In this document: positions 28,972-59,927 of the stretch, in pieces
Numbering within the stretch: position 1 is the stretch's first letter
Layout: every line of letters starts with the position of its first letter
From: an uncultured Acidobacteriaceae bacterium
GTDB lineage: Bacteria; Acidobacteriota; Terriglobia; Terriglobales; Acidobacteriaceae
Length of the DNA stretch: 64,000 bases
Direction: 5' to 3'
Assembly (NCBI GenBank): GCA_963774565.1
Contig: CAVZFP010000009.1
Coordinates: 64,349 to 128,348, forward strand
The notes under the pieces: model-generated
Told to the model about the DNA's origin: nothing
Database searches by the model: none
Seen by the model: the letters and a program-made list of their open reading frames with translations, nothing else
Translations under genes and position numbers: made by a program

Positions 28972-29150
28972 GGTCTGGACTTACTCCAGTGTGTTGGCAT
29001 GTTACTCCTTTAAGGCCGAACGGGGAACGACATGTGAGCGACAGAGTCTTTGACGTCATTTGAGGCTTACCAGCAGTTCATCGCACGCGCGGTCGAGTTT
29101 GGCAGATCTTAACAAAACAAGGAAATTGTGTTGAATGTGGAGGCCTGGAA

Positions 29151-30638
29151 TCAGGCAATCATGCGATCGTCCTTCCGCTGACCGGCGCGATAGAGGATCC
29201 AGCCGAGGAGATTCGCCGCCAGCACCACTCCGGCGATTTTCAGGGAATAGCGAGACTGGCTCTCCACGCGTATGATCGGGAAGATCGAGAGTACAACGAA
29301 GAGCAAGGTTACGAGAAAGCCCGAAGCTGCCGCCGCGCGCAGAACGAGGCCAGGGCGGATACCCCGGGCTTTGGGCGCGAGCAGAGGAATGGCGAAGAGC
29401 GCGAGATAGGCCAGGCCGTAAAAAGTGAAGCCCCAGGTCAGAAGAAGTTCGTAGGCCTCTTGTTCGCCGACGCCGATCAGGGCCGCGATGCTCGCGGCCA
29501 GGGTTGCCCCTCCCAGGAAAAGGATCGAGTTCACCGGCGTTTTGTAGCGGGAATGCAGATGCGAGAACCAGGGGGGCAGCAGATGGTCCCAGCCGGCGGC
29601 CATGGGGAGGCGCGCGCTGCCGCTGAAATAGAGGCTGAAGGTGGAGAGGTAATTCGCCAGCAGCAAGAAGATGGCAACCGGAACGATGACGGCGCCGAAG
29701 TTCCCGAAGCCGCGGCGCAAGGCTTGCGGGATGGGACCGATGACATCGACAGCGTCGGGGGAGACGTAGGCCAGAATCGCACTCGTGGTGAAGATATAGA
29801 TCAGCGCGATCATGGGCGCGGTGATCAGGATGGAACGCCCGATGTTGCGGGCGGGGTTGCGGGATTCCCCGGCGAAGATGGCGACATATTCGAAGCCGCT
29901 GAGCGCGCCAAAAGTCATCTTGCTGAAGACGCTGAGAGTGAAAACCGTGAGCGGCGGTGCGACCAGTCGCAAGGGATGGAAAGCAGTGAGAGTTCCGTTG
30001 CGTACATTCAGCAATGGAAGGGTTACAAGTACGGCTACGGTGACGAGCACGGCGATGCTGCCTGCATTGTTGAACCACTTGCCAACGCTGAAGCCAATGC
30101 CGGCCAGCAGCATTTGCGCCGCGATTAGAACTACTGACGCAGACAGAACAGCCCACCGGTTGTCGGCCATCCAGGATAGTGAAGGCACGGCATAAGCCAG
30201 GAAGGTCGAAGTGACCAGGCCGATGATGGCAACGTAGAGCATGATGAAGAGCCAGAGATTCCACGCCACCAGGAACCCGATTTGATCGTTGAAGGCGAGG
30301 CGCGCCCATTCGTAGAGACCGCCTTCGAGCGGCATCAGACGATTGAGATGTGCGACGATCAGCGCGAGTGGAATGAAGAAGAGCAGCATAGCCGAGAGCC
30401 ATAGGACAACATGAGCCGGCCCAGCCTTCACCGCCGTGCCGAGAAAGTCGGGGACTACTACAAGCAGGATTTGCGCGAGGATCAAGTCGAGGAGACCGAG
30501 TTCCCGACGGAGGCCGGCGCTGTGGGACTGAATTTCGGCTTCGGCTGATTGGAGAGACGGATTGTCTGGGATCGCCAATTTAAGTCTCAGAAGGGAAGTC
30601 AAATACCCCGCGCTGTCCCGCCAAAAAACGCGGAGCAA
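29151..30638 (-). CDS. APC-superfamily amino acid/polyamine permease
   Basis: Intact 495-aa ORF with ~12 hydrophobic helices. The N-terminal LGLLDLILAQILLVV... and overall pattern are typical of APC transporters. Confidence 0.75.
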   Translation of the reverse strand: MLRVFWRDSAGYLTSLLRLKLAIPDNPSLQSAEAEIQSHSAGLRRELGLLDLILAQILLVVVPDFLGTAVKAGPAHVVLWLSAMLLFFIPLALIVAHLNRLMPLEGGLYEWARLAFNDQIGFLVAWNLWLFIMLYVAIIGLVTSTFLAYAVPSLSWMADNRWAVLSASVVLIAAQMLLAGIGFSVGKWFNNAGSIAVLVTVAVLVTLPLLNVRNGTLTAFHPLRLVAPPLTVFTLSVFSKMTFGALSGFEYVAIFAGESRNPARNIGRSILITAPMIALIYIFTTSAILAYVSPDAVDVIGPIPQALRRGFGNFGAVIVPVAIFLLLANYLSTFSLYFSGSARLPMAAGWDHLLPPWFSHLHSRYKTPVNSILFLGGATLAASIAALIGVGEQEAYELLLTWGFTFYGLAYLALFAIPLLAPKARGIRPGLVLRAAAASGFLVTLLFVVLSIFPIIRVESQSRYSLKIAGVVLAANLLGWILYRAGQRKDDRMIA

Positions 30639-42694: not shown

Positions 42695-44183
42695 TTAGCT
42701 GGATGAGTTTTCGGATGGCACCGAGTCCGTGGCAGGCTCCTCGTCCCCTGCAGGCACGAGTTCGAATTTCTTCAGTTTGTAACGCAAGGCGTCGCGGCTG
42801 ATGTCGAGTAGGCGGGCGGCGTGGGTCTGATTGCCATTGGCTTGTCGCATGGCGAGTTCGACCATGGCGCGCTCCACCTCTTCCAAAGATGTGCCTTCCT
42901 CGGGAATGTAGAGCCGGGGCAGCACGCGGCCATTCGGAAGTTGCTTGCCCGCGCCATCACCCGGCGTGCTGCTGGCCTCAAAGGCCGTCAAGCCGCCGCG
43001 AGCCGCTTCGCCCACCGCGAACGGCATGTAGACCGGCCGCAGAATGAATTCGTCTTCCAGGATCATGGCGCGCTCGATCGAGTTCTTGAGCTCACGCACG
43101 TTTCCAGGCCAGTTGTGAGCGAGCAGTAACCGGCGGGTCTCGCGCGTCGATGCCACGCACGGACTTCTTGAACTTGCGGTTATACCAGTTGATGAAGAAG
43201 TCGACCAGAGGCAGAATATCTTCGGTGCGCTCGCGCAGCGGCGGAATGAAGATAGCGATGATGGCCAGCCGGTAATAGAGATCCTGGCGGAAATGGCCTT
43301 CGCGTACCGCTTTTTCCAGATCGCGATTGGAGGCCGCGATTACGCGCACATCCACCTGCATATCGCGTACGCCTCCTACCCGGCGAATCACTTGGTCTTC
43401 GAGTACGCGCAGCAGTTTGGCTTGCAGCAAGGGAGAGAGTTCGCCGATTTCATCCAGGAATAACGTGCCGCCATTGGCCGTTTCAAACAGGCCCTTCTTC
43501 ATCTGCTTGGCGTCGGTGAAGGCGCCTCGTTCGTGGCCGAAGAGTTCAGCTTCCATCAGAGTCTCGGGAATGGCCGAACAGTTGATGGCGACAAATGGGC
43601 CGTGCTGGCGGGAGCTATCGTAGTGGATCGTTTTGGCGATCAGGTCTTTGCCGGTACCGCTCTCACCTTGAATCAGAATGGTGGTGGCCTCGCTGGCAGC
43701 AACCTTTTGCACGAAGTTCATCAGTTCTGTTGTTTTCGGCGAAACCGCAACGACTTCGTGATAGCCCGTGCTCCGGCGCACTTCCCCGCGCAGAGACTGG
43801 ACTTCGGTGCGCAAGCGGGAAGCTTCCAGCGCATTCTGGATGGTGACGTGTAATTCCTCGAAATCCAGGGGCTTACCGATGAAGTCGTAAGCACCCAGTT
43901 TAAGCGCGGTTTTGACGTCGTCCAGTTGAGGATCGGCCGTAATCATGATCACGGCGGGGGCGTCGGGACTTTTCTTAAGCTGTTCGAGAACTTGTATTCC
44001 GTTCAAATCTGGCAGGCGCACGTCAAGCAGAACCAAGTCGGGAGACTCGTGCTGCGCGAGGCGAAGTCCGGGGTCGCCGGCCGCGGCTTCGACAACCTGG
44101 TATCCCCACTCTTCGCACTTCTGACGCAGCGACCAGCGCACCAGGCGCTCGTCGTCAATCACCAGAATCTTCTCGGCTGGCAT
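42695..44183 (-). CDS. Sigma54-dependent response regulator (NtrC family: REC, AAA+, Fis-type HTH), with one apparent frameshift (~43150)
   Basis: ORF 43092-44183 carries the receiver DLVLLDVRLPDLNG, Walker A GESGTGK, the GAFTDA sigma54-contact loop and VRVIAASN. ORF 42695-43156 carries NWPGNVRELKNSIERA and the HTH AARLLDISRDALRYKLKKF. Confidence 0.9.
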
Positions 44184-45313: not shown

Positions 45314-46579
45314 CTAGGACGAAGAAACTGGCGCAGCCGCCCTATGCAGCGGCAGAATCACGGCAAACGTTGTGCCCTTGCCGACCGCGCTGGTGACGTC
45401 GATGCGGCCTTGGTGATCTTCCACGATGCGGCGGGCTAGCGACAATCCCAGGCCCGTGCCGTCGCCTTTGGTGGTGTAGAAGGGCCGGAAGATGTTGGGC
45501 AGGTGATCGGCCGGGATGCCACGGCCATTGTCGGCCACTTCGACCACGGCGGTGGCTCCAAGGGGCTTTACGGTGACCGTGATTTTGCCGTTCGCGTCGA
45601 TCGCCTGCAGAGCATTCAACAGCAGGTTCAGCAGCACTTGGTGGATCTGATCGCTATCGTGCTCGACTTCCGGCAAGGCGGGATCTTTGTGGAGCGTGAT
45701 GTCGAAGGACTTAGCCAGCGCCTGCTGGCGGCCCAGCATCACGGCATGTTCGACCGTAATATTCAGGTCACTCTTGCGAACCTTGGGAGGATGCGGCCGG
45801 GCAGTCTGCAGGAGATCGGTGACGATGTGATTGATGCGTGCGATTTCCTGGCGGACGTCTTTGACCACGGTGCGCGCCGGGCTGCTTACGGGCAGATCAC
45901 GACCAATAATTTCGATGACGCCGGCAATCCCCGCCAGAGGGTTGCGGATTTCATGGGCCAGTCCTGTCGCCATCTCTCCCAGAGTGGCGAGGTGCTCGGC
46001 GCGCGACATTTGCGTGCGGTGCAGGCGTTCGATCTCAGCCCGGCTTTCGCGGAGCTGCATTACCATCTGATTGAAGTTGCGGCCGAGGTCGCCGATCTCG
46101 TCGTTGCGCCGGGCGAAACTCACGGCCACGGTGAGATCGCCGCCGCCGAGCCGAGCGATCTTCTGCTGCAGTTCGACCATGGGGCGCTGCACCGTGTAGG
46201 TGAGCACAACGAGCAGTGCACCGCAAATTGCGACCGCCCCTGCTCCCGCGACTAACAGAACGATGTGGCGTTCGGGATCGCGCCAGGAGAGCGTGGCCAG
46301 CAAGAACAGCAGCATTCCGCCCAGCAACACGCAGGCAATCGGCACCAGCGCCTTGATCTCCCAGTTGATGCGAAGCCAGGGAAGTTCGGGATCCTCAGGC
46401 TTGGTTCCAGGCGTGGCGGAAGCGTCCGCAACCGGTCCAGTCGAGATAGGATCCGTCAGCAATGCTGCTCCCGAATAGGCTGTACTAAAAAAGCCGGCAC
46501 GCGAGCGAGCAGAGCTGGACGCAGGGACCTCATCAGTCGGAATGTCTGGACTCGTTGGTTTCGTCATGGTCTCAGGCAT
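45314..46579 (-). CDS. Sensor histidine kinase (2 TM, HAMP, HisKA, HATPase_c) with almost no periplasmic loop
   Basis: Intact 421-aa ORF. It has a HAMP-like [20 protein letters not shown], the H-box [12 protein letters not shown], the N-box LLNLLLNA, the G1 motif DNGRGI and the G2 motif GTGLGLS. Its start overlaps the ccsA stop by 8 nt. Confidence 0.9.
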
Positions 46580-47969
46580 ACGCGTGCAGTCCTGGAAGCA
46601 AGTAGGTCACGCCAAAGAAAGTGAACATCACCACCGCGAAGCCCAGGATGGCGAAGTAGGCCGCGCGCCGGCCGCGCCAGCCGCGGGTGATGCGCATGTG
46701 CAGGTAGCCGGCATAGACCAGCCAAGTAATCGCCGCCCACGTCTCCTTGGGGTCCCAATTCCAGTAGGACCCCCAGGCCCGGTTGGCCCAGTAGGCGCCG
46801 GCGGCGATCATCAGGGTGAGCAGGGGGAATGCAATGCAAATTGTTTTGTAGGTAATTCGGTCGAGCGCGTCCGCATCCGGCAACAGGCGTTCCAGATCCT
46901 GGCGTCGCCAGAGCAGCAGAAGATAAAGCAGGTTAGCGAAGATTCCGCCGACCAGTGCGGAAAGAATGAACGGGCTCGCCGCCAGGCTGGTGGCATAGAG
47001 TCCGTCCGCATCGAGCGAGGGATACTGCCCGGAGCGTACTCGCAGCAGGAAAAATACCAGCGCCAGCGATTGCAACAGAATGCTGATGAAGACCGCGCGG
47101 TCGGCGAAGGCCAGCAACCCTTCATTTTTCTGGACTCGTGACAAAATGTAAAGCACGAGCGGCGCCAGCACCGCGGCGAACACCAGAAGCATCAGCCAGC
47201 CAAGGTCTGGAATCGTGACGAACAGCCGCACCCCACGCGAGACGAACACCTCGGCTTTGTTCTCCGCATCCCACGCGACCACGCTGAGCCCGCCCCACTT
47301 TTCGAAGCGCATCAAGACCGCGGCATAGATGCCAACGGTGAACACACTGGTCGCCGCCAGAAAGACCTCTGTCTTCATCTTGTCCTGGATCAGGAACATC
47401 ATGGCGAGCGCGAAGCTCAGGGCGCATGCCGCATATGCCAGCATGGCGAGGGTCACATGCACGTGCAGCCACGTCGATTGCAACGCCGGTACGAGCGGGC
47501 GCACTTCGCTGGGCAGAAGCTGCATCAAGATAACACCCACAATGGCGACCGGCATGGTCACGGTGCCGATGACTTTTACCCCGTAACGTTTCTCGGCGAT
47601 CAGGGTCAGCGCCGCCAGCGTCCACACGAAGCTCAGCAGCATTTCATAGACGCTGGCGAATGGCGGATGCCCCGCTTCATACCAGCGATGGGCCACGGCT
47701 CCAGTGTTGACCAGCAGTCCAGCCCATGTCATGAGCGATGCGAACTTGATGTAGGAATCGGTCCCGGTCACGCCAAAGCCAAGATACAGAGCTCCCGCGC
47801 CAGCGTAGAAAACCAGCGCGGCATACAGCAGGTTGGCCTCACTCAGAAGGCTTCCGCTTTTGATCACATTCAGAAAAGCCATGAACAGCAGGAACGCCAT
47901 TCCCAACCCCACCATCACGATCAGCGTATTGCCGGTCGCGGGATGCTGTTCAACGTTTGCGCGTGCCAT
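46572..47969 (-). CDS. ccsA: Cytochrome c biogenesis protein CcsA/ResC (system II haem-handling subunit)
   Basis: Intact 465-aa polytopic ORF with the Trp-rich WWD-type motif [14 protein letters not shown] and conserved His residues. Confidence 0.9.
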
Positions 47970-47990
47970 ACACTTCCTCCGTAGCCGGAC

Positions 47991-49457
47991 TCACCTTCCG
48001 GCGATCGATGTTCTGGCGATCGATGTGGCCTGTGCCTGGGCCGAAGCCACGATCTCGGTTTCCAATTCCTTCTGAATCTCTTTCACCACGTTCTTGAACT
48101 TATGTTCGAAGGCGTCGCGGTTACGGTTCGCCGTGCCACCGACCCACAGCGCCGCGCGGCCGCGCGCATCGACTACGGGAACGACCCAGAACCGCATGTG
48201 AACCACGTAGAAAACAAAGGTCAGGCCGATTGCCATCAACACGACGCCAGCCCAAACCGCCCACTGGCCGGGTTCGTGCGAGACCTGCAGTCCGGTGTAG
48301 AGCCCGGTCTTCAAGTCCTTGGGGTCGAAAATGTAGGGGGAGGACGCGTTCTCGTCGACGCCCGGAATGTCGGGCAGCCACACGTTCACGCTGGTGTTCG
48401 CTTTCTTCGAAGTCACGACCAGGTGGACCGCGGGGTTCACGACGTCTCTACTGCGGGCGTAAACCCGGCCGTCCTGCACCACGAAGTCAGGGATGAACTC
48501 CACCAGTTGCACGCTGGTGTCGGCATCGAGGGCGACGGTCTGATTCATGGCCAATGAAATTTCCTGCGGAGTGCGCGTGGCGCCGCGGGCGGGAGTCGCG
48601 TTCAGTATCAGTTGATCGAGCTTGCCAGTGCGGCCATAGCTGGCCTGATAAAAGCGCAGCCCCTGATAAACCAGTGGGTCGTTGACCACAATTTCTTTGC
48701 GCGCGATCTCGCGGCCGCCGTCCACCACGGCAAGCTTCGACCACCAACGCTTGGGAGTGCCGTCGGCGTAGGTCTCTTCGCCGGTGCCATCGCAGCGGAT
48801 GGAGAACGGAATGGTCTGCAGAGAGCCGTTCTTGAGTTCGATCTGGTTGCTTGCGCTTCCCGGCGTCAGCATCAGGAATCCGCGCCATCCGTAGAGCGAG
48901 TCCACAATGAAGCCCAGGAAAATCAGCAGCAGGCTGGCGTGAACGATGTAGACGCCCATCTCGGAAATACGATTGCGCTCCGCGAACAACGAGAAGCTGT
49001 CGGTGCGTACGATCCGTTCGGCTTTCAGTCCCAGGTGGCGGAAGGCGCGCTCGGCTGCGCTCAACGCTTGCTCGTCATCGGCCACTGCAATTAGCGCCTG
49101 CGTCGGCAGAACCTTGCGGAAACTTTCATCAGGACTCTTATAAGGACGGGCGAAGTAGCGCCATGCGTTCGGGAATCGCTGCACCGACGCTGCGATGATG
49201 CTCAAGCTGACCAGAATCATCAGGGCGACGAACCAGCGCGTGTGGAAGATGTCAGTCAGGCCCGTGACATCGAGGAAGCGCAGCATCGCCGGGGAGTAAG
49301 CGCGCTGCATGTCATCGGGGTCGGTGATCGGACGCTGCAAGATGACCGTACCCGCAGCGGAAAGGATGACCACCAGGATAATCAGAACTACGCCCGTCTT
49401 AATGGAACTAAGTGTCTGCCAGATTTTGCGGACCGCGGAGCGAAGTGACTGGGCCAT
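47991..49457 (-). CDS. resB: Cytochrome c biogenesis protein ResB/Ccs1 (system II)
   Basis: Intact 488-aa ORF. It has the N-terminal TM GVVLIILVVILSAAGTV, a large soluble loop and a C-terminal TM pair, and lies immediately upstream of ccsA. Confidence 0.85.
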   Translation of the reverse strand: MAQSLRSAVRKIWQTLSSIKTGVVLIILVVILSAAGTVILQRPITDPDDMQRAYSPAMLRFLDVTGLTDIFHTRWFVALMILVSLSIIAASVQRFPNAWRYFARPYKSPDESFRKVLPTQALIAVADDEQALSAAERAFRHLGLKAERIVRTDSFSLFAERNRISEMGVYIVHASLLLIFLGFIVDSLYGWRGFLMLTPGSASNQIELKNGSLQTIPFSIRCDGTGEETYADGTPKRWWSKLAVVDGGREIARKEIVVNDPLVYQGLRFYQASYGRTGKLDQLILNATPARGATRTPQEISLAMNQTVALDADTSVQLVEFIPDFVVQDGRVYARSRDVVNPAVHLVVTSKKANTSVNVWLPDIPGVDENASSPYIFDPKDLKTGLYTGLQVSHEPGQWAVWAGVVLMAIGLTFVFYVVHMRFWVVPVVDARGRAALWVGGTANRNRDAFEHKFKNVVKEIQKELETEIVASAQAQATSIARTSIAGR

Positions 49458-49635
49458 ATCTTTCCTTTCCCTTCATTCGGACAATGCACGTTCCGCTCCA
49501 ACTTCGTGCAATCCCCACAATTCGTTTTGGTTCAACGGGTTGCGCTGCGGGGTGAGTATTTGTGTCCGACCGCGGTTGAGCCATTACACTCACGTGCGAA
49601 GTTGGTGCGCTGCGTTTTCACCCACCGCTCAAGTG

Positions 49636-49651
49636 TGTGATTTCAATCACA
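49636..49651. promoter_or_regulatory. Perfect CRP/FNR-family palindrome TGTGA-N6-TCACA in the divergent resB / 16-haem cytochrome control region
   Basis: tgtgatttcaatcaca is a 7-2-7 perfect inverted repeat. It also contains the FNR-like TGAT-N4-ATCA core. It lies ~180 nt from each divergent start codon. Confidence 0.5.
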
Positions 49652-49828
49652 AAAGCGGATAAGGGGCGTGCGTTATTTCCACCAGTGGGAGTGCGGCAGA
49701 AAGCCCATTCAGGGCTGGACTCGGGTCTGTGAAAATTCGCAACATCGATAGCCCCACCCTTGAAGTGACTGTGAGGCAAACACTTACAGATTCTTAGAGA
49801 GCCAGTCGCCCGCGGCCAAAATTAGGAG

Positions 49829-51370
49829 ATGTTCGTGCAAAAGCTAAGGTACATGGTCCCAGAGGTCCAAAATCGCAAGGCTTCGGTAACCGGGCGGAAA
49901 CTGCAAACAGCCCTCCCTAAATTTGTATGGCTGTGCGGCTTCGTCCTCGCGATCGCGATCTCGCCGGCTGTAGCGAAAACCCACCCGGTCCCACTCGACA
50001 AGAATGTGGATGCGGCGAAATGCATCGAGTGCCATGAGGACAAGACCAAAGGCAAGGCGGTTCACTCGGCCATCGCTACCGGATGCCTGAGCTGCCATGA
50101 AGTCCGGGTCAATAACGACGTCACACGCGTCAAGCTGACGGCGACCACTCCTTACAAGCTTTGCCTCACTTGTCACACCGAGAAGGACGCCAGCCAGATT
50201 AAGGGCACGATCCACAAGCCTGCAGTTCGTGATTGCCTGACCTGCCACGATCCACATGCCACCGATTTCAAGAACCAACTGTTGAAAGCGACGTCTGGCG
50301 AGAAGAAAGACAATCTCTGCCTCACGTGCCATAACCAGGGCGAGAATGTTCCCGCGAAGGGCAGCCGTCACGCCGCGCTCGACATGGGCTGCGACACCTG
50401 CCACACGACGCACAAGACTGGCCCCGAAGCCACTGTGCAGAATCAGTTCCACCTGACCAAGGCGACGCCGGCCCTTTGCATTGACTGCCACGACGTGAAG
50501 GACGCAGCACTGCAGAAGGCGCATCAGAATCAGCCCTTCGGTACCGCGAACTGCGTAAGCTGCCACGATCCTCACCAGTCTGCAGCGCCCAAGCTGATGG
50601 CGAAGTTCACTCATCCGCCCTTCGCCGACAAGAGCTGCGACACGTGTCATGCTGCGGCGAAAGACGGCAAAGTTGTGCTGACGCAAGCCAGCGCCAAAGA
50701 ACTCTGCGTCACCTGCCACTCCGATCAAGCCGAGCAGATCGCGAAGGCGAAAGTGCAACATCCCGGAGCGGCTGGAGATTGCACCGACTGCCACAATCCG
50801 CACGCCGGTAACACTCCAGGTTTTGTGCAACCCACACCGGTGGCCGCGTGCCTGAACTGCCACAGCGATCAGGCGGAACTGCAGAAGAACCCGCACCTGC
50901 ACCAGCCGGCTTTCCAGCAGGGATGCGCTACCTGTCACGAGCCTCACGGCGGCGACAACCAGCACCTGTTGCGTACCGCCAATGTGAATTCGCTCTGTCT
51001 CGAGTGCCACGGCCCGGATCGGGACCCCGGCAAACTGGAGAACGATCATCTGCTCACTATTTTCGAGGGCAAGGTGAAGCTGCCGGAAGACTACTTCAAG
51101 ACGAAGCGCCCGCCGGTGTTGCCGCTGCAGTATGGACTGGGGCATCCGACCGAGCGCCACCCGATTTCCGATGTTACGAACCCGACCACCAAGGCCGTCA
51201 CTGCGATGAATTGCTTGACTTGCCACCAGCCGCATGCGGGCGCCGACAACGGCATGCTGGTGAAGGACCAGGCGCCCAACATGCAATTCTGCCGCACCTG
51301 CCACAGCAATCCGATGGATCTGAAATCGGTCGGCGGCGGCAACGAAACAAAGGGCGGAGAGAAACGATAA
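49829..51370 (+). CDS. Multihaem c-type cytochrome with 16 CxxCH motifs (c7-like repeat architecture), exported
   Basis: Intact 513-aa ORF. An in-frame GTG at 49835 is better spaced from the aggag RBS. It has the signal peptide KFVWLCGFVLAIAISPAVA. I counted 16 CxxCH motifs, from CIECH to CRTCH. Confidence 0.9.
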   Translation: MFVQKLRYMVPEVQNRKASVTGRKLQTALPKFVWLCGFVLAIAISPAVAKTHPVPLDKNVDAAKCIECHEDKTKGKAVHSAIATGCLSCHEVRVNNDVTRVKLTATTPYKLCLTCHTEKDASQIKGTIHKPAVRDCLTCHDPHATDFKNQLLKATSGEKKDNLCLTCHNQGENVPAKGSRHAALDMGCDTCHTTHKTGPEATVQNQFHLTKATPALCIDCHDVKDAALQKAHQNQPFGTANCVSCHDPHQSAAPKLMAKFTHPPFADKSCDTCHAAAKDGKVVLTQASAKELCVTCHSDQAEQIAKAKVQHPGAAGDCTDCHNPHAGNTPGFVQPTPVAACLNCHSDQAELQKNPHLHQPAFQQGCATCHEPHGGDNQHLLRTANVNSLCLECHGPDRDPGKLENDHLLTIFEGKVKLPEDYFKTKRPPVLPLQYGLGHPTERHPISDVTNPTTKAVTAMNCLTCHQPHAGADNGMLVKDQAPNMQFCRTCHSNPMDLKSVGGGNETKGGEKR

Positions 51371-52659
51371 TGTCTGCACACCGCAAATCAAACTGCACCC
51401 GCAAGCTTTGGACTCTGATTCTGTTCGCTCTGGCGCTCGCCTCCGCGGTGCCGGCCCATGCGGACAAGAAGAAGTCTGCTCCGGCCACGGGAAACGTCAA
51501 GCTCGGCGATCAGCGCAGCAAGGCATATTTCGATCTCAGCAAGATCGTGTGGCCGAATCCTCCGGCGATCGCGCGGATTAAGTTTGTCGATCTGTTTACC
51601 GGACAGAAAGTCGATCCTAATCTGTTCTCCAAGAAGAACCAGAAGACGAAACAAAAATGGATGGACCGCCTGGCGGGCGACCAACAGACGGAAGAAATCA
51701 AAATCAAGGATCTGCCTTTCCAGTTAATCCGGACTTACGGAGTAGCGGTCGATTCCAAGGGCCTGATTTACGCTGCGGACCAAGGCGTGAGCGCGATCTT
51801 CATCTTCAACACCGAGACCAAGGCGGTCGAGCTGATTGCCAACGGAAAACAGGTGCATTTCGGCGCAGTGAGCGGCATGGCCCTAGATGACAACGATCGC
51901 CTGTTTGTGACTGACGTCGGTCTGCGCCGTGTTGACGTATTCAAGCCGGGAACGCACGAGTTGGAGACCGTTTTCGGTGGCGACGTCCTCGCCAAGCCCG
52001 CCAGTATCGCCATCGATACCGAGAACCGGTTTATCTATGTCGTTGACACGCAGAACGACGTGGTGGACGTGTTCGATGCCGACAGCTTCAAGCTGCTGCG
52101 GAAGATCGGCACGCCGAGCAAGAAGCACACGCTGACCGCCCCGGGAACTTTCTCCCTGCCGATGGGCGTCGCGGTTGACAAAGACGGCAATGTTTACGTC
52201 ACCGACACTTTCAACGACCGCATAGAGATCTTCGACGCCGACGGCGGTTTTATCAGCATGTTCGGCAAGAACGGCGATGGGCCCCAGGATTTTGAGCGGC
52301 CCAAGGGAATCGCGGTCGATGGCGATGGCCACATCTGGGTTGCGGATTCCGCTCAGGACCGGATCAAGGTTTTCGATAAAGACGGCCGCTTGCTGATTTA
52401 TTTCGGTGAGCACGGCGAATATCCCGGTCGCTTCATGGGCGTTTATGACATAGCGATTGACAAGAACAATCGGGTCTTCACTTCCGAAATGTTTCCCGGT
52501 CGCGTGCAGATGTTCCGTTACATCACCGACGAGGAAGCCGCTGCGGAAAAGAAGCGGCGCGAGGATGAGTCCGAACAGAAGCATCCCGCCGCTCCGGCAC
52601 AGAAGCCGGTCAGCGAAGCGGTGCAGAGTAACGCGGCAAAAGATTCTGCGGCGAAGTAA
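51370..52659 (+). CDS. NHL-repeat six-bladed beta-propeller protein, exported (429 aa)
   Basis: The ATG at 51370 overlaps the cytochrome stop as TAATG. It has the signal peptide KLWTLILFALALASAVPAHA and repeated NHL units (P.GIAVD..G.IYV.D....RI.VFD). The N-terminal 174 aa of ORF-track entry 50848-52659 is an out-of-frame overlap and is not part of the gene. Confidence 0.85.
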   Translation: MSAHRKSNCTRKLWTLILFALALASAVPAHADKKKSAPATGNVKLGDQRSKAYFDLSKIVWPNPPAIARIKFVDLFTGQKVDPNLFSKKNQKTKQKWMDRLAGDQQTEEIKIKDLPFQLIRTYGVAVDSKGLIYAADQGVSAIFIFNTETKAVELIANGKQVHFGAVSGMALDDNDRLFVTDVGLRRVDVFKPGTHELETVFGGDVLAKPASIAIDTENRFIYVVDTQNDVVDVFDADSFKLLRKIGTPSKKHTLTAPGTFSLPMGVAVDKDGNVYVTDTFNDRIEIFDADGGFISMFGKNGDGPQDFERPKGIAVDGDGHIWVADSAQDRIKVFDKDGRLLIYFGEHGEYPGRFMGVYDIAIDKNNRVFTSEMFPGRVQMFRYITDEEAAAEKKRREDESEQKHPAAPAQKPVSEAVQSNAAKDSAAK

Positions 52660-52845
52660 GGCAGTCTGAAGGAGCTTGCGATGAAAAGCGAAGCGAACAA
52701 CCGGTTGCAACGAGCCGCAACAAGTTCTCGGCAGTCCATGGCTGCCGAAGAACAAGCGTCGGGCAAAAGCCCGGCTCTTGGATCCAGACGTACTTGTACA
52801 GCTTTATTTGTGTTGCAGCACAATCCTAAGGAGGTTTCGAAACTT

Positions 52846-53734
52846 ATGAAGAAAGCGATGTTAGTTCTCTTGGTAGTATGCGGCGTCGCTGCTATGGCGA
52901 TGGCGCAAGCTGGGACCATCAGCAATACGACAGACGTCCTCGGCGCCCACCTCGGCTACGGCCGTGGCTGCGTCATGTGCCACGCTCCGCACAGCGGTCC
53001 TGCCGGTAACGGCAAGACCGTCAGCGATTCTCAAGCTGGCAAGTTTGCTTTGTGGGGCCAGGATCTTACCCCGCTGTACGGCGCAAACCTTGACGTTCAG
53101 CGGCGACGGCAAGGCCACCTACGCTGTCACACTGCCGGCGCAGGGCACGATCACCAGCGCCCATGACGCCAACACCATCATCCTGTTCTGCCTGAGCTGC
53201 CATGATGGCAACGTTGCCCCGGCTACTCACATGACGGGAACGACGGTTGAGACCCTGCCAGTCGTCGGCGGCAACGCTCCCACTTTCCTGGGCAAGGACG
53301 GAACGGGCGCAACCAACCCGTATCAGAACGACCACCCGGTGGGCGGCGCAGCAATCGTCAGCTGCGGCGGACAATACAACTGGGATTGCACTGGTGGCAA
53401 TACGGTTGGAATCACGATGGCTGGCGCTACTCACGGCGGACAGTTCCTGACGAACTACGGTGGCTCGTTCTGGAACACTGGCACCGTCAACGCGACCAAC
53501 GTCAAGCTGGCCACCTTCGGCACAGTCGTGACCGCAGTGACCTGCACCACCTGCCACGATCAGCACAGCATGACCGTGTTCACCAACAACGTCGGCAGCT
53601 TTGCCACGAGCTTCTTTGTTCGCGGCAACTACATGCCACAAACCGGCGGCAACAACGCGGCGCAGTTCTGCCGCAACTGCCACGGCGGCGAGTCGAACGA
53701 ATTGCACAACGTGAATGGCGTTCCGACCACCTAG
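52846..53734 (+). CDS. Small exported tetrahaem c-type cytochrome (~296 aa, Gly/Thr/Asn-rich), with one apparent 1-nt frameshift (~53087)
   Basis: The RBS aaggagg (52828-52834) precedes the ATG at 52846. The signal peptide is MKKAMLVLLVVCGVAAMAMA. ORF 52681-53166 joins ORF 52964-53734 at ...LYGAN|LTFSGDGKATY... The four CxxCH motifs are CVMCH, CLSCH, CTTCH and CRNCH. Confidence 0.8.
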
Positions 53735-53753
53735 GCTGTGTTGTTTTGAACCC

Positions 53754-53784
53754 TGGGGGAGGGAAGTTCCTCCCCCAATTTCTT
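53754..53784 (+). terminator. Strong hairpin (attenuator or partial terminator) directly after the tetrahaem gene
   Basis: tgggggagg-gaagtt-cctccccca is a 9-bp GC-rich stem, followed by aTTTcTT. It lies 12 nt before the PPIase ATG. Confidence 0.55.
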
Positions 53785-53795
53785 GGAGAAAGATC

Positions 53796-54815
53796 ATGAA
53801 GTGCCAGCTCTTAATTTCGATCGTGTTCTTGGCGGCCATCAGCCCGGCTTGGGCGCAGCTTGTCAGTTCGCACGCTTCCACCCTGCCCACGCAGCCCGCG
53901 GCCAGCGCCATGGAAGCAGCCAGCAAGCCTGTGGCGCGAGTAAATGGAGCGGTCCTGACAGACCGTGACCTGATACGCGAGGAGTACACGATTTTCCCTT
54001 ACGCGCGCCAGCATAACGGCGTCCCGAAAGGGATGGAAGCAGATATCCGTGCCGGCGCCATGAAGATGATTGTCTTTGAAGAACTGGTTTACCAGGAAGC
54101 GGAACGCCGGAAGCTGACCGTGCCACCCTCCCGTTTTCGTCAGGCCGAGGTCGCCTTCCGCAAGCAGTTCACGAATCCGCAGGAATATCAGGAGTTGCTC
54201 AACACCGAGTTCAAGGGTTCCAAGGCGCTGCTCGATTCCAAGATCCAGCGCTCGCTGCTGATCGAAACCATGTTGAAACAGGAAGTGGAGGACAAAGCCT
54301 ACATTCCCATGGCCCAAGCCCGCACTTTCTATGACAAGAACCCAGAGCGGTTCCGCGTTCCGGAGTCGTTTGCGATGCAAACGATTTCGATCATTCCGCC
54401 CAACAACGCGAGCCCGGAACAGGTGAAGGAAGCGCGCAAAAAAGCGGACAACGCTCTGCGCCAGGCCAAGCTGACCAAGAGCTACGACGACTTTGGCCTG
54501 CTGGCCGAAAAGCTTTCCGAGGACGACTACCGGGTCATGATGGGCGATCACAAGGCGGTTGACAAGGCCAAGCTGCCGCCGCAGGTGTTGCAGGCGGTAT
54601 CGAGCATGCAACCCCAGCAAATGAGCGGCCTTATCGACATCGGGAATAACGGGTACACGATTGCGCGGCTGAACGAGCACGTCCCCGAAGGCAAGCGGAC
54701 CTTTGAACAGGTGAAGGACAGCATTCGCGAGTACCTGAAGAAGCAAAAGACGGAAGAACTGCGCAGCGCGCTGGATAAGCGGCTGCGGAAGAACGCGAAG
54801 GTAGAGGAGCTCTAA
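53796..54815 (+). CDS. SurA-N / PpiC-type (parvulin) peptidyl-prolyl isomerase, exported
   Basis: ATG at 53796 within ORF 53715-54815. It has the signal peptide MKCQLLISIVFLAAISPAWA, a SurA-like chaperone N-domain (VARVNGAVLTDRDL...) and a parvulin-like region (FAMQTISIIPP...). Confidence 0.75.
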   Translation: MKCQLLISIVFLAAISPAWAQLVSSHASTLPTQPAASAMEAASKPVARVNGAVLTDRDLIREEYTIFPYARQHNGVPKGMEADIRAGAMKMIVFEELVYQEAERRKLTVPPSRFRQAEVAFRKQFTNPQEYQELLNTEFKGSKALLDSKIQRSLLIETMLKQEVEDKAYIPMAQARTFYDKNPERFRVPESFAMQTISIIPPNNASPEQVKEARKKADNALRQAKLTKSYDDFGLLAEKLSEDDYRVMMGDHKAVDKAKLPPQVLQAVSSMQPQQMSGLIDIGNNGYTIARLNEHVPEGKRTFEQVKDSIREYLKKQKTEELRSALDKRLRKNAKVEEL

Positions 54816-54817
54816 TC

Positions 54818-56665
54818 GTGAAGACTGTCGTCAAACGCGGGATTCTGGTGGCCAACCTGATTATGCTGATGGCCACGTTGCCCGCGTGGGCGCAGGTTGA
54901 GGTCGGCGAGAATACCAGAATGAACCTGAGTGGTAATCTCTCCTTCGGATACACCGCTGATTACTCCAACCTGTTGCCATCCGACCATGGCATGACCCCT
55001 GGCGGCAATGCCGATCTGAGCGGGTATTATTACAACCCGAACTTCCTCTCATTTGACGTGCAGCCCTTCTATAACCAGTCCAGAGATAATTCTCAGTATC
55101 AATCCGTATTTCAATCCGGAGGAGTGAGCGGCAACGCATCCATCTTCTCCGGCAGCCACTTTCCCGGAACGGTGAACTACAGTAGGGTCTACAACAACGA
55201 AGGCGGGATCACCCTGCCCGGCGTGGGTAGCCTGGTTACCCGCGGGAAGAGCGATAATCTTGGCCTGGGTTGGGGAATTCATATTCCCGGTTACCCCAAC
55301 GTTCAATTCCAATTTGCCGACGGCGGGAGCAACAGTTCAGTGTTTGGGACCAGTGCAAACAGCACATACCGCTCTAAACTGTTCGGGGTGGCTGTATCGG
55401 ACCGATGGGCCGGCTTCGACCTCAGCGGCGATTATCACCGCAACAACATTCACTCCCTCACACCTGACTTTCTTGCGGGCGAAGGTCCCGTGGCTTCGGC
55501 AGGCTCATCCAATTCCTACGACTTTACCCTTGGGCATAAATTGCCGTTCAATGGTGCGTTTTCGGCTGCGGCCGGCAGGTCCGATGTCAGTTCTGAATCG
55601 AGTGGCGAGCAGTTTAACGGAACCATCGATACGGTCGGTTCCGGCGTAAGCTTCGAGCCTATCGCCAATCTGAATCTGGGCGTCACCGAGCAGTACACCA
55701 ACAATCTGGAAGGGTCGATTTACCAGTCGGTGTTTTCTGGGGGAGTAGTGCCGTCGTCATTGCTTGACTATTCGACCCACTCGCTCGACATCAACGGACA
55801 CGCCAACTACACCGTGCCATCGATTCATCTGACGTTTGGGGCCATTGCAGACCGTCGCCAGCAGGAAATATTTGGGGTTTCACTGTCGGCTGACATGTTT
55901 AGTGAATCGGTGATCTACGGAGCCGATTTGCTGGGCGGCTATTTCAATGCCAGCGCGGCTGTGACCCAAACCCAGATCATGGGCGTAAACGGGGGGGCGC
56001 ACTCCCTGGGGCAGTTCGAAACCGTCTCCTACTCGCGTAAGTACCAGAATTGGACCCTGAACAGCTCGTTCAACTACTCACACAATACGCAGACCGTTCT
56101 GATTGGTTACACGGCTTCCGGGTACGGATATTCAGCCGGAATTGGGCGCAGAATTGGGGCCTATTCGTTTTGGAGTGTGAACGCCGTCGAGACGAAATCA
56201 AAATTCAGCAACTCCTCGGGATCGGAAAACCTAAGTCAAAGCTATTCGACCTCTCTCACCTTGAAGCGGTTTAGCATGAGCGGGAGTTATGCGAAGGCCG
56301 ACGGCAATTCGCTGCTTACGCCAACGGGCCTGACGCCAGTGACAACTCCCATCCCAGTTTTGACCCCGGCGCAGGAGATTGTGTTTGGCGGAAAATCCTA
56401 CTCTTTCGGCGCCTCGACCACTCCGCTACATGGGCTCGTCCTGTCGGGCTCTTACTCTTCGACAAAGAGCAACACGACAGCGAGTTATGCCACTTCCCAG
56501 AACACGACTGCACAGTTGAATACGATGCTACAGTACAAGGTAAGGCAGTTGTGGATCACGGGCGGCTATTTGAGGCTGCAACAGGGGTTTAGCATTACTG
56601 GCCAGCCCGCCGCTTCGTATTCGTCGTTCTTCATGGGGATTACGCGGTGGTTCAAATTCTTCTGA
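54818..56665 (+). CDS. Predicted outer-membrane beta-barrel protein of unknown family (615 aa)
   Basis: Intact ORF with a GTG start 2 nt after the PPIase stop. It has the signal peptide ...LIMLMATLPAWAQ and long runs of alternating hydrophobic/polar residues rich in Gly/Ser/Tyr/Asn. The C-terminus ...GITRWFKFF has a terminal aromatic residue, typical of BAM substrates. Confidence 0.65.
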   Translation: MKTVVKRGILVANLIMLMATLPAWAQVEVGENTRMNLSGNLSFGYTADYSNLLPSDHGMTPGGNADLSGYYYNPNFLSFDVQPFYNQSRDNSQYQSVFQSGGVSGNASIFSGSHFPGTVNYSRVYNNEGGITLPGVGSLVTRGKSDNLGLGWGIHIPGYPNVQFQFADGGSNSSVFGTSANSTYRSKLFGVAVSDRWAGFDLSGDYHRNNIHSLTPDFLAGEGPVASAGSSNSYDFTLGHKLPFNGAFSAAAGRSDVSSESSGEQFNGTIDTVGSGVSFEPIANLNLGVTEQYTNNLEGSIYQSVFSGGVVPSSLLDYSTHSLDINGHANYTVPSIHLTFGAIADRRQQEIFGVSLSADMFSESVIYGADLLGGYFNASAAVTQTQIMGVNGGAHSLGQFETVSYSRKYQNWTLNSSFNYSHNTQTVLIGYTASGYGYSAGIGRRIGAYSFWSVNAVETKSKFSNSSGSENLSQSYSTSLTLKRFSMSGSYAKADGNSLLTPTGLTPVTTPIPVLTPAQEIVFGGKSYSFGASTTPLHGLVLSGSYSSTKSNTTASYATSQNTTAQLNTMLQYKVRQLWITGGYLRLQQGFSITGQPAASYSSFFMGITRWFKFF

Positions 56666-57751
56666 AATCGGTTTTCGGTGAGACGTGCTGGAAGCGAGCA
56701 CTGGTTTGCGCCATGGCGCTGCTGCTGGCTCCGGTGCCGGGAGCAATCGGGAAGACCTCCAAGACGCAGCCCGTAGAAGTTCCCGAGTTGCTGCTGGAGG
56801 GTGGACGGCGGCTCACCTTTGAGCGCAGTTTCTGGTCTGAGCCCGAAGTGAAGATTAAGCGCGGCTTCTGGACCAAACTCATCGACATCGTGGCGGGCGC
56901 TCCCGACTTTCATGTCCTGATCAGTCCCTACGAAGTCGTGGAGGATTCCCGCGGCCGCATCATCGTGACCGATCCGGGAGCGGCCGGAATCCACATCTTC
57001 GACTTTGGACAGCAGAAGTACAAATTCATCTCGCGCGACCGAGATGACAACAACGGGCTGGTCACACCGCAGTGCGTCGCCGTGGATGCCGAAGACAACA
57101 TCTATGTGACCGATTCGGAGTCCGGCAAGATCTTCGTCTTCGAGCCCGGCGGAAAATTTCAGCGGACGATCGGCAGCCTGAAAGGCGGCGAAGGATATTT
57201 CAAGCGTCCGACTGGAATCGCCGTCGATTCCGCGGCGCAGCGCATTTACGTCACCGACACACTGCGCAACCAGATTTTCGTTCTCGACATGCAGGGCGAC
57301 GTGCTGCAGACCATTGGCAAAAACGGGGATCGGCAACGTCGAGTTCAACTATCCCACCGAGTTGCGCCTGTCGGGCAATCATCTGATCGTGGTCGATGCG
57401 ATGAACTTCCGCGTGCAGGTGCTGGACCGCTCGGGAAACTTCCTCTACGCCATCGGGCGCATTGGCGAAGGGCAGGGGCAGATGTTCCGGCCGAAGGGGA
57501 TCGGCGTGGATTCGGAAGGGCATCTGTACGTGGTGGAAGCGGTGCGCGGGTTAGTGCAGGTTTTCGACCAGGCGGGAAACCTTCTTTACTACTTCGGAGC
57601 GAAGGGGAGCGGCTTTGGAGAATTCCAGTTGCCCACCGGCTTGTGGATTGATCATAACGACCGTGTTCTGATTGTCGACTCGTATAACCGGCGAGTCCAA
57701 GTGTTTCATTATTTCGGGCTGGCAAAACAAACCGCGGGAGGTCAGCCTTGA
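56647..57751 (+). CDS. Second NHL-repeat beta-propeller protein, with one apparent frameshift (~57330)
   Basis: ORF 56647-57651 (...GRIIVTDPGAAGIHIFD...PQCVAVDAEDNIYVTDSESGKIFVFE...PTGIAVDSAAQRIYVTDTLRNQIFVLD) continues in ORF 57314-57751 (...NHLIVVDAMNFRVQVLD...PKGIGVDSEGHLYVVEAVRGLVQVFD...). Confidence 0.8.
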
Positions 57752-59776
57752 GATCGAGGCTTATTGCGGCGGCCGTCGTGTCGGTGCTGGCGAGTGAGAT
57801 GGCATTCGCGCAGATCTATACGGACGTGCTTGGAGCGCATAATATGTCGCCCGCCAGCGGATCTCCAATTACCGGGAATCTCGGCAGCCCGTGCCTGTAC
57901 TGCCACGCGCCACACTCGGGGATCGAAGGTACGGGCGGTGTGAGCGGAACTCCGCTGTGGAGTCAAAAACTATCAAGCGTGCAGTCGTACCAGACATATA
58001 CCAGCATCACGATGGTGAATAAAACCAATGCATCCCCACCGCTGGGGTCGAATAGCACGCTTTGCCTGAGTTGCCACGATGGCACGGTGGCACTGGGAAC
58101 GCTCACTCCCTATGGTCAGGTATCGATGTCGGGAACTCTCGCCGGGACGGCTGCGGATCTGGGAACGAATCTGCAGTCGACGCATCCATTTAACTTTGTT
58201 ACGCCGCTGCAACCGGCTCCCGACATATGGCCGTCGTTGGGCGCCAGTCCCCCTTCGACCCAAGATACGACGGGTGTAGTGCGGCTCATCAATGGCAATG
58301 TGGAGTGCGGAAGTTGTCACAATCCGCATGTGCAGAACATCGATTCCAGCTCTGATTTCCTGGTGATTGATAACTCGCAAAGTGCGCTCTGCTTGGCCTG
58401 CCACAACACGGTTCCGAGCGGAACTGGGATGGGACTGGCAGCGAGTGTGGCTCGTCCCGCTACAGCGGCCGGCGTAACGTCGAATTCAACTTCAAAGACA
58501 GCCTCGGTGAACCCGCTTGCACGATGGCGGGAGAGCATCCATGCCACCGCGACCAACCGGGTTGCGAGCCAGATTTCGCCCGAGGCGGTCGGGCTTGTCT
58601 CCAAGCGAATGACTCGCGTCGGTGCCCTTGGACCCTACACCAACCTGCGCAAGAACGGGTGTTTATCCTGCCACGCGACACACAACTCGTCCACGAAGGT
58701 CTTGCTGCGAGCACTGGACGATCAGACCTGCATCGTCTGTCACAGCGGCGGCACTTCTGTGTCGCCTCCGGCTCCGAACATCGCCGCCGAGATGGCGTCG
58801 CCGAAAATCAGCCACGTGATCGCCGGCGGCTGCGAAAAACAGTTCGCACTCGGCGCGCGAGAGCGAGTTGCTGAATCACAATCGCCATGCCGCTTGCGTG
58901 GATTGCCACAATCCCCATGCCACGAAACAGGTCGGCTTGAGTTTTCCCGCGCCTCCGCTAATACGTCCGTCGCAGGAGGGGGTGAGTGGCATCAGCGCCA
59001 CCGACGGCCGCAGTATTGTCTCTCCCGCCACGAATCAATACGAGAACTGCCTGCGCTGCCATGGAACGAGTGCGGGCAAATCAGAGAACGTGGCGGTGTT
59101 TGGGTATCTGCCCAACCGGTTGGTCTCGGGGCCGGATCCTTGGAACGTGATCCCGCAATTCGGGTTGACATCCACGTCAAGCCATCCCGTGATACATGAT
59201 CGTCGCAGTCCATTTCCGCAGCCCAGTCTTCGCTCGAACATGCTTGATCTGGACGGAGTCCGGCAAGGGCGCACCCTGGGCGTGCGTATCTTGTGCACGG
59301 ACTGCCACAACAGCGACGACAACCGGGAATTCGGCGGAACTGGACCGAATGGACCTCACGGCTCGAAGTATTCCCACATCCTGGAACGTCGCTACGATAT
59401 GAGCCAAGCGCCGGTGCCGGGCCAGCCCATTACGAATTTGATCGTACCGCCCAATCTGACTGCGACGGGCAACTTCGCGCTTTGCGCGAAGTGCCATGAC
59501 TTAGCAACCATTGTCAGCAATTCCAGCTTTAGTGAGCATGCTCGCCACATCAACGATGGGTTTTCCTGCTCGGTGTGTCACACTTCGCATGGAATGGGAT
59601 CACAAATGGCTACTGTATCCGGCGAGCGCATGGTGAATTTCGATCTCAACGTCGTTGCCCCCAACGGCAGGAGCCCAATTACGTACCGGAAATCGACGAA
59701 TTCGTGCAGCCTGACCTGCCATGGGCACGCTCATGGGTCCGCTGGAACGGGCGAACCGGTGAGACTGCGGCCGTAA
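57748..59776 (+). CDS. Exported multihaem c-type cytochrome with 11 CxxCH motifs plus one CxxxCH, with one apparent frameshift (~58840)
   Basis: The TTG start overlaps the NHL stop as TTGA. The signal peptide is MRSRLIAAAVVSVLASEMAFA. ORF 57748-59199 carries CLYCH, CLSCH, CGSCH, CLACH, CLSCH and CIVCH. ORF 58868-59776 carries CVDCH, CLRCH, CTDCH, CAKCH and CSVCH, and also CSLTCH. Confidence 0.8.
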
Positions 59777-59927
59777 AACCTCTGGGCTTTTCTTCGGTCA
59801 GGGGTTCTAGGACAATTCCCGGTTGAGCCTTACACAGACCCGGCGACGATCTCTTCGGGAGGGTTATAGGGTAGAAATACGCTCTACGATCCTAATCAGC
59901 GTTCTCGAAGCTTGTTTTCCATCTCGT

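Follow-up and report, generated by a model that had tools for sequence, protein, structure and literature searches.

The locus described here lies in a stretch of 64,000 nucleotides (the window; all positions are counted from its first letter) of an uncultured Acidobacteriaceae bacterium, taken from the forward strand of contig CAVZFP010000009.1 (positions 64,349–128,348) of assembly GCA_963774565.1. Its central element is a gene for a small secreted cytochrome with four haem-binding motifs (the tetrahaem gene), which a first-pass annotation, made from the nucleotide letters, proposed as a candidate subunit of a polymerising filament. The gene occupies positions 52846–53734 of the forward strand. 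Its reading frame opens with ATG at 52846 and runs into a stop at 53166, while the +1 frame continues to the TAG codon at 53732–53734; deletion of one base yields a protein of 295 amino acids, which is ungapped across the break when compared with homologues of 281–296 amino acids, more than 4,400 of which can be aligned with it over the whole length. The span to 53784 given initially was right in its start, while its end takes in a hairpin situated behind the coding sequence, which stops at 53734. The frame break suspected near 53087 proved to be real: alignment of DNA with ten relatives revealed exactly one extra base on the forward strand, seen as a single gap within 53081–53090, where TACGGCGCAAACC-TGAC stands in the nearest relative with an intact gene, and the protein is conserved on both flanks of this site. 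Four single breaks of this kind were registered in about 17 kb of conserved genes of the window, the others being in the genes of a response regulator (~43107–43141), the β-propeller NHL2 (~57290–57327) and the multihaem cytochrome MHC2 (~58821–58838), and ccsB is broken in one relative from the same kind of long-read collection of metagenome-assembled genomes (MAGs). Because three neighbouring conserved genes and the ccsB gene of this relative are likewise affected, the break is attributed to an assembly indel rather than to gene decay, and the extra base is probably a long-read error. Other overlapping pairs of open reading frames in the window, for instance at 29056–30638 of the reverse strand, may be further cases of such indels. 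Positions 52846–52908 encode a Sec signal peptide (MKKAMLVLLVVCGVAAMAMAQA, ending in ...AMAMAQ-A), removal of which leaves a mature protein of about 274 amino acids. The possibility that it is a lipoprotein was considered and rejected, as Cys12 lies within the signal peptide, is not accompanied by a lipobox and is not kept in relatives.

Four CxxCH motifs are located at residues 42–46, 115–119, 233–237 and 275–279 (C42, C115, C233 and C275). Glycine, threonine, asparagine, serine and alanine together account for 52.2% of the mature chain and D, E, K and R, which carry charge, for 7.7%, the corresponding values for OmcE of Desulfuromonas soudanensis being 52.8% and 10.2%, so that the peculiar composition noticed at first sight was confirmed by counts. 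Outside the haem motifs there are eight histidines (residues 35, 49, 106, 128, 163, 196, 240 and 287). The first-pass annotation counted at least eight of them as available ligands; the number held, and conservation was found for only four. To this end an exhaustive profile search over 1.84 billion representatives was used, which gave 404 clusters at E ≤ 1e-3, and 48 diverse full-length members were compared. The CxxCH motifs were invariant in this set, and His35 was present in 48/49, His49 in 45/49, His163 in 48/49 and His240 in all 49 sequences, whereas His128, His196 and His287 varied among homologues. His106 is kept in 115 of 120 close homologues and replaced by Phe in the other five; in the wider family D, S, T, G or R stand in its place. 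Thus, the family has eight conserved histidines, four in the motifs and four beyond them, which is the same count as in OmcE, where the remaining four act as haem ligands (bioRxiv 10.1101/2025.10.22.684050). The histidine preceding the first haem motif, to which attention had been drawn from the beginning, is one of these four: it is His35, situated within the motif DVLG(A/P)H. The same motif opens an OmcE-like module in MHC2, and there the histidine of DVLGAH aligns on the N-terminal TKH of OmcE (hhalign, 99.8%, E 1.5e-28), which makes His35 the counterpart of the N-terminal histidine of OmcE. In the filaments of OmcE and OmcS the interfacial haem is ligated by a histidine of the adjacent subunit (PMC12954529; PMC9473688). 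Two other local features of the protein were observed. Cys173 and Cys181 (window positions 53362–53388), probably linked by a disulphide in an inserted region, are invariant in the close subclade only, and in the C-terminal tail V-P-T-T (residues 291–295, positions 53717–53731) V292 and T294 are invariant within the 18 sequences of this subclade.

Screening of the protein with Pfam and NCBIfam models gave cytochrome matches at the level of motifs only, and a single-sequence phmmer search against PDB found no match. A profile built from 18 family members was then compared with all PDB sequences, and only two chains were registered at E < 1e-4, both of them being subunits of OmcE filaments: 9yuq_N of D. 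soudanensis (E 2.1e-5, with an alignment spanning the whole protein) and 7tfs_A of Geobacter sulfurreducens (E 7.6e-5). A third chain was unrelated and had an E-value of 1.2. The motifs CVxCHxPH, LFCxSCHDG and NDHP(V/I)G are common to the tetrahaem protein and OmcE. Comparison of the family alignment with an alignment of the OmcE family, built around the 9YUQ sequence, returned an hhalign probability of 99.4% (E 5e-21) over 206 columns, which cover all four CxxCH motifs and three distal histidines (APH/TPH, NDHP and DQH/DVH). A profile–profile match of this significance over four haem motifs establishes the homology, and the tetrahaem protein can be regarded as a divergent but clear homologue of OmcE, so that the relationship guessed from composition and placement of histidines has been borne out. 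Affiliation with periplasmic cytochromes c3/c7, understood as the presence of a compact domain of ~70–130 amino acids matching the Pfam or NCBIfam c3/c7 models over their length, was rejected: the matches to PF14522 (28.2 bits) and PF14537 (22.6 bits, under its cut-off) were short, and no single stretch passed by itself. The CctA model was rejected as well, with 20.7 bits against a cut-off of 180 bits. Structure prediction by AlphaFold2 was useless when supplied with 18 close homologues (predicted local distance difference test, pLDDT, of 36); with 131 aligned sequences including members of the OmcE family it reached a pLDDT of 77.7 and a predicted template modelling score of 0.73 for a chain devoid of haems. 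The model contains little regular secondary structure; its C-terminal half is predicted with the highest confidence, and residues 21–80, which comprise the N-terminal arm and the first haem site, with the lowest.

The tetrahaem gene is the third in a cluster of seven genes transcribed from the forward strand in the order MHC1, NHL1, tetrahaem, peptidyl-prolyl isomerase (PPIase), 615-amino-acid barrel, NHL2 and MHC2, with genes for ResB and CcsB alongside. MHC1 (49829–51370) is a multihaem cytochrome of about 500 amino acids of the DmsE-like, doubled-CXXCH type, with 16 CxxCH motifs in an intact orthologue, and is presumed to be a periplasmic feeder. NHL1 (51370–52659) is a six-bladed β-propeller with NHL repeats. 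Downstream of the tetrahaem gene follow a SurA/PpiC-type PPIase with a signal peptide (53796–54815), presumed to be a periplasmic folding helper, the predicted outer-membrane barrel (54818–56665), the second propeller NHL2 (56647–57751) and MHC2 (57748–59776), an 11–13-haem cytochrome of about 667 amino acids with 11 CxxCH and one CxxxCH in an orthologue. ResB and CcsB, which belong to the System II of cytochrome c maturation, are encoded divergently from this cluster (46572–49457, reverse strand). This order recurs on four long contigs, which belong to different genomes. When one genome per GTDB species was scanned, 72 tetrahaem loci emerged, all of them from MAGs and none from cultured strains; 71 are labelled Acidobacteriota or Terriglobia and one was binned as Acidimicrobiaceae. 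As far as the contigs allow, the full gene order is kept in about 60 of the 72. Some genomes have a second, unlinked copy of the tetrahaem gene (L054 and L057; ~40% identity), which is deprived of the accessory cluster and of the hairpin behind the gene, and in two genomes, MFD00731.bin.1.223 and MFD03044.bin.2.66, the full cluster is apparently present twice. Genes for a histidine kinase (45314–46579) and a sigma-54-dependent response regulator (42698–44183), both on the reverse strand, adjoin ResB/CcsB, as they do on every long contig of relatives, and are likely to be a dedicated regulator of the cytochrome cluster; in some relatives a MazEF pair is inserted between them.

For comparison with Desulfuromonadia two metagenomic OmcE loci (L006 and L007) were used, in which a propeller gene, OmcE and a protein of 756 or 785 amino acids follow each other. 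The propellers encoded in these loci are homologues of both acidobacterial ones (BLASTP E 1e-31 to 2e-45 for NHL1 and NHL2, 1e-31 to 1e-43 for NHL1), and MHC1 is related to cytochromes encoded in the same loci. The first ~220 amino acids of MHC2 (57748–58410) constitute an entire OmcE-like tetrahaem module, matched to the OmcE family by hhalign with 99.8% (E 1.5e-28), which opens with DVLGAH after the signal peptide and is followed by ~445 amino acids with 7–8 more haem motifs; this cytochrome could serve as an anchor, cap or tip of a filament. The 615-amino-acid protein, which has a signal peptide, no cysteines and no Pfam match, looks like an outer-membrane barrel as judged from its predicted features: it contains 12 dyad-alternating stretches versus 4.1 ± 1.9 in shuffled sequences, has no hydrophobic helix and ends with ...RWFKFF, the C-terminal motif (F/Y)xG(I/V)(T/S)RWFNFF being nearly invariant among relatives. 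A search of PDB with the barrel profile gave no meaningful match.

Expression signals surrounding the tetrahaem gene also turned out to be conserved. The Shine–Dalgarno sequence AAGGAGG at 52828–52834 of the forward strand, 11 nt before the ATG at 52846, has no second copy within 49400–59800, and its GGAGG is kept in nearly all of 31 aligned leaders. The gap separating the gene from its upstream neighbour is 186 nt, so that both parts of the initial statement on the only canonical ribosome-binding site (RBS) of the cluster placed after such a gap were confirmed. The leader contains two hairpins, GGCAGTCCATGGCTGCC at 52730–52746 and GTCGGGCAAAAGCCCGGC at 52758–52775 (forward strand), which are conserved in relatives, and in the first one compensatory changes affect four of five pairs across the 31 loci; they may mark a site of processing or serve to stabilise or attenuate the transcript. 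An Rfam scan of 52400–54000 found no family, and there was no obvious match to a sigma-70 promoter in the tetrahaem leader. A sigma-54 promoter (TGGCAC-N5-TTGC) in the leader or in the divergent region was also considered and discarded, as no match was found near the cluster and the count was below that expected by chance.

Another structural element, a GC-rich hairpin with a T-rich tail (53754–53784, forward strand), lies between the stop codon of the tetrahaem gene and the RBS of PPIase and may resemble a terminator or stabilise the transcript. The first-pass annotation described it as a hairpin of 9 bp followed by a T-run: the hairpin (53754–53777) stood, with 10 pairs, seven of them G–C, and a loop of 4 nt, while the following ATTTCTT is a weak T-run. 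Taken alone this hairpin is not significant against shuffled sequences (z = −1.42). In 64 of 69 loci, however, there is an equivalent GC-rich hairpin of 8–13 bp, which starts 8–25 nt past the stop codon; a T-rich tail follows it in 41 of these. In most loci it has the form GGGGGAGG...CCTCCCCC and the RBS of PPIase follows directly, and in several loci matched double changes were registered, for example GGAGGAGGG/CCCTCCTCC, CAGGAAGAG/CTCTTCCTG and GGCGGGGG/CCCCCGCC. The exceptions are the two unlinked paralogues L054 and L057 and the loci L029, L034 and L070, two of the latter three looking like problems of extraction or assembly. RNAalifold gave a poor consensus for this element, and detection in individual sequences was preferred, since variable loop lengths threw the MAFFT alignment out of register. 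The arrangement of RBS, leader and hairpin, as read from the sequence, fits a subunit made in excess by means of attenuation or differential stability of mRNA.

Evolutionary rates were compared as median identities to one reference cluster in 45 complete loci. The barrel is the fastest-evolving product of the cluster (41% versus 56–67% for the others), and the tetrahaem protein (56%) and MHC2 (57%) diverge faster than MHC1 (67%) and the propellers (66% for both NHL1 and NHL2); the value for PPIase is 56%. A higher rate in cytochromes of the outer surface than in the periplasmic members of porin complexes is known from Geobacter (PMC12977616). The rates would thus be weakly consistent with location of the tetrahaem protein and MHC2 on the surface and of MHC1 in the periplasm.

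Based on the homology to OmcE, the set of ligands, the gene neighbourhood, the barrel, the expression signals and the evolutionary rates one can assume, with reasonable though by no means full confidence, that the tetrahaem protein polymerises as the major subunit of an extracellular filament of the OmcE type, made by an uncultured member of Terriglobia (Acidobacteriota). OmcE homologues competent for nanowires have been recognised by a barrel and a propeller encoded nearby (10.1101/2025.10.22.684050), and the acidobacterial cluster encodes a propeller and a predicted barrel. A number of observations weigh against this assumption. In the assembly GCA_963774565.1 the gene is frame-broken, and the T-run behind its hairpin is weak. 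Identity to OmcE is only ~25–30%, and compared to OmcE the protein has an insertion of ~65 residues (166–232) and a C-terminal extension. His35 is separated from Cys42 by six residues, versus 17–20 in OmcE and MHC2, so that the geometry of the interface may differ from that of OmcE. His106, the ninth well-kept histidine of the close subclade, might serve as a cis ligand of the open haem. The signal peptides of the propellers are of the ordinary type and lack a lipobox, and an alignment of 40 barrel sequences showed no homology to the 756- and 785-amino-acid barrels of Desulfuromonadia (hhalign probability 0.1%). A Foldseek comparison, suggested at the outset for OmcE and OmcS and run with the haem-free model (pLDDT 77.7) against PDB, found no match besides a spurious one (E 9.3); the OmcZ paper (PMC9473688) reports that such structure searches also miss OmcS and OmcE unless the sequences are close, and for these coil-rich cytochromes the outcome is considered as uninformative. 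Finally, OmcE-like tetrahaem proteins are widespread, and membership in the family is no proof of polymerisation (10.1101/2025.10.22.684050).

Some of these points leave room for a carrier that does not polymerise, that is for a monomeric periplasmic or surface relay in a conduit formed by MHC1, the barrel and MHC2; such a carrier would be akin to OmcE by descent and differ from it in quaternary structure. We regard it as possible and yet rather unlikely. The cluster also fits a layout similar to Mtr or Pcc, in which a barrel is combined with a DmsE-like cytochrome of 16 haems and a large cytochrome predicted to be extracellular, and this corresponds to the reading of ‘EET1’ as a porin–scaffold–cytochrome system in a preprint on peat bacteria (10.64898/2026.05.27.727921). 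Filament formation has been shown for only three of the common OmcE-like tetrahaem proteins, and the spacing of His35 and the large insertion, in which the protein differs from OmcE, and the empty structural search also speak for a relay. Against it stands the pattern of four plus four histidines, which is kept exactly as in OmcE with the N-proximal one included, and the conserved strong RBS together with the post-gene hairpin suggest a product needed in excess over its partners. In addition, the protein diverges as fast as MHC2, presumably exposed on the surface, and not as MHC1, presumably periplasmic, and a propeller and a predicted barrel, the signs by which nanowire-competent homologues have been recognised, are encoded nearby. 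Quite improbable in our opinion is another role for the close subclade, in which a protein with nine conserved histidines acts as a filament cap (‘stopper’) or as a self-satisfied monomer, its open haem being filled in cis by His106. The high frequency of this histidine among close homologues agrees with such a role, but it is lost in five of the 120 and in the wider family, where the cluster and the hairpin are retained, and this loss outside the close subclade weakens the idea. Moreover, the cluster encodes no second eight-histidine tetrahaem protein that could be the major subunit, and strong expression signals suit a major rather than a minor component. Equally little credit can be given to a pseudogene inactivated by a genuine frameshift. 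The surplus base does cut the frame off at 53166, but single breaks occur in four otherwise well-conserved genes within ~17 kb, the broken ccsB of a relative from the same type of MAG collection completes a pattern pointing to assembly indels, and conservation of the protein continues on both sides of the break.

If the tetrahaem protein is indeed the subunit of an OmcE-type filament, its way to the surface may be outlined as follows. The precursor would be exported by Sec, its signal peptide with the terminal ...AMAMAQ-A being readable directly from the sequence, and the neighbouring ResB and CcsB, whose genes are present, would attach four haems at the CxxCH motifs. The co-encoded periplasmic PPIase may help to fold this loop-rich protein, in parallel to the role proposed for OscH in the OmcS cluster; OscH is, as we assume, also a prolyl isomerase. 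Judging by the conserved neighbourhood, the folded subunit would pass through or be mounted on the 615-amino-acid barrel of the outer membrane with the NHL propellers as a scaffold, so that barrel and propellers would be devoted to secretion or anchoring of the filament. By analogy with OmcE, subunits may then stack head to tail, one of the histidines 35, 49, 163 or 240 completing the bis-histidine ligation of a haem in the neighbouring molecule, and such ligation in trans would generate a continuous insulated chain of haems, as in OmcE and OmcS. Electrons could be supplied by the 16-haem MHC1, and MHC2, bearing an OmcE-like module of its own, probably docks on the filament end. An excess of subunit over accessory proteins would be brought about by the strong RBS together with the long, structured leader and the conserved hairpin behind the stop codon. 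One may go further and suppose that Terriglobia encode a self-contained OmcE-type nanowire machine, in which MHC2 is a dedicated, co-encoded end piece of the filament, docked via the same handshake between histidine and haem with DVLGAH as a ‘donor’ motif and functioning as an anchor, an initiator or a solvent-exposed tip. This extension is put forward tentatively, as a rather doubtful one. A tip or stopper protein was sought by the authors of the D. soudanensis structure, and none was found in the OmcE operons of Desulfuromonadia (10.1101/2025.10.22.684050). If the extension is true, dominant Acidobacteria of soil and peat make cytochrome wires, and their cluster becomes a tractable model for studying initiation and termination of wires and their connection to the cell.

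In the literature searched there was no paper describing an OmcE-type filament subunit of Acidobacteriota. The OmcE family with its cluster and the EET1 core of Terriglobales, consisting of a porin, an NHL propeller and a 13-haem cytochrome, are already known. What is new is a deeply divergent and larger OmcE-type subunit in an ecologically dominant uncultured lineage, and a cluster in which a PPIase and a large cytochrome with an OmcE module occur together with a barrel of another kind. In soil and peat, Terriglobia count among the most abundant bacteria. To our knowledge, structures of cytochrome nanowires have been solved in few organisms (Geobacter, Desulfuromonas and two archaea), and we are not aware of a settled terminal electron acceptor for much of the anaerobic respiration in soil and peat. 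With more than 4,400 sequence clusters, 72 species-level genomes, all of them uncultured, and a conserved cluster of seven genes, the tetrahaem family is a concrete candidate for carrying electrons over long distances to particulate organic matter. PPIase and the MHC2 with its OmcE module, which are unreported in the OmcE clusters of Desulfuromonadia, bear on folding, anchoring and termination of filaments.

Among systems with known filaments, PcECN of Pyrobaculum calidifontis and AvECN of Archaeoglobus veneficus also use tetrahaem subunits to form insulated haem wires, but differ in fold and sequence, and the profile search of PDB did not retrieve them. OmcS is a hexahaem cytochrome that has no sequence similarity to the acidobacterial protein, and shares with OmcE the ligation of haems by histidines across the interface of subunits (PMC12954529; PMC9473688). 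According to a summary of work on its osc operon (Shen et al. 2025, via PMC13194489), the genes accompanying this filament subunit likewise encode proteins for which a role in folding (OscH) or secretion (OscE, OscF and OscG) is proposed. In the same taxon as the acidobacterial cluster, EET1 has been described from peat Terriglobales (Fiorito et al., bioRxiv 10.64898/2026.05.27.727921); it combines an MtrB-like porin, an NHL propeller and a 13-haem ‘OmcE-like’ cytochrome, and its expression in peat metatranscriptomes was reported. The order of porin, NHL and cytochrome corresponds to positions 54818–59776 of the window, where MHC2 has 11 CxxCH and one CxxxCH, and the EET1 porin, modelled there with AlphaFold 3 as MtrB-like, is taken to be an orthologue of the 615-amino-acid barrel, the two being matched by taxon and gene order rather than by sequence. 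The text and supplement consulted do not discuss the upstream tetrahaem gene, PPIase, MHC1 and NHL1; the system is interpreted there as a porin–cytochrome conduit, and the word ‘nanowire’ is absent from the main text.

The nearest parallels are offered by OmcE itself. Homologues accompanied by nanowire genes have been described in five phyla, Acidobacteriota not being among them, and the minimal cluster of Desulfuromonadia consists of two multihaem cytochromes, two β-propeller lipoproteins, OmcE and a large β-barrel, located beside resB/ccsB (10.1101/2025.10.22.684050); a corresponding set of genes surrounds the acidobacterial tetrahaem gene. OmcE of D. soudanensis WTL, which forms bundled filaments (PDB 9YUQ; bioRxiv 10.1101/2025.10.22.684050), belongs to another phylum and its bundling loops are not comparable, but it gives the best sequence match in PDB and is encoded, like the acidobacterial protein, in a minimal cluster free of glycosyltransferases. 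The barrel is of 615 amino acids here versus ~770 in clusters of Desulfuromonadia. OmcE of G. sulfurreducens (GSU0618; PDB 7TFS), the filament of which is solved structurally, has ~200 amino acids in the mature form versus ~274 and ends right after the fourth haem motif, unlike the acidobacterial protein with its insertion at residues 166–232 and the C-terminal extension ...VPTT. The acidobacterial cluster differs from that of G. sulfurreducens in having no downstream island of glycosylation genes, in the presence of PPIase and in a barrel that is not recognisably homologous. At the same time, both proteins are secreted, loop-dominated tetrahaem c-type cytochromes rich in glycine, threonine, asparagine, serine and alanine, both combine four CxxCH motifs with four further conserved histidines, and next to both genes there are multihaem cytochromes and resB/ccsB, as well as an NHL propeller and a barrel of large size, which is a predicted one in the acidobacterial cluster. 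As far as one can judge from these sequences, Terriglobia of soil and peat probably make OmcE-type wires too.

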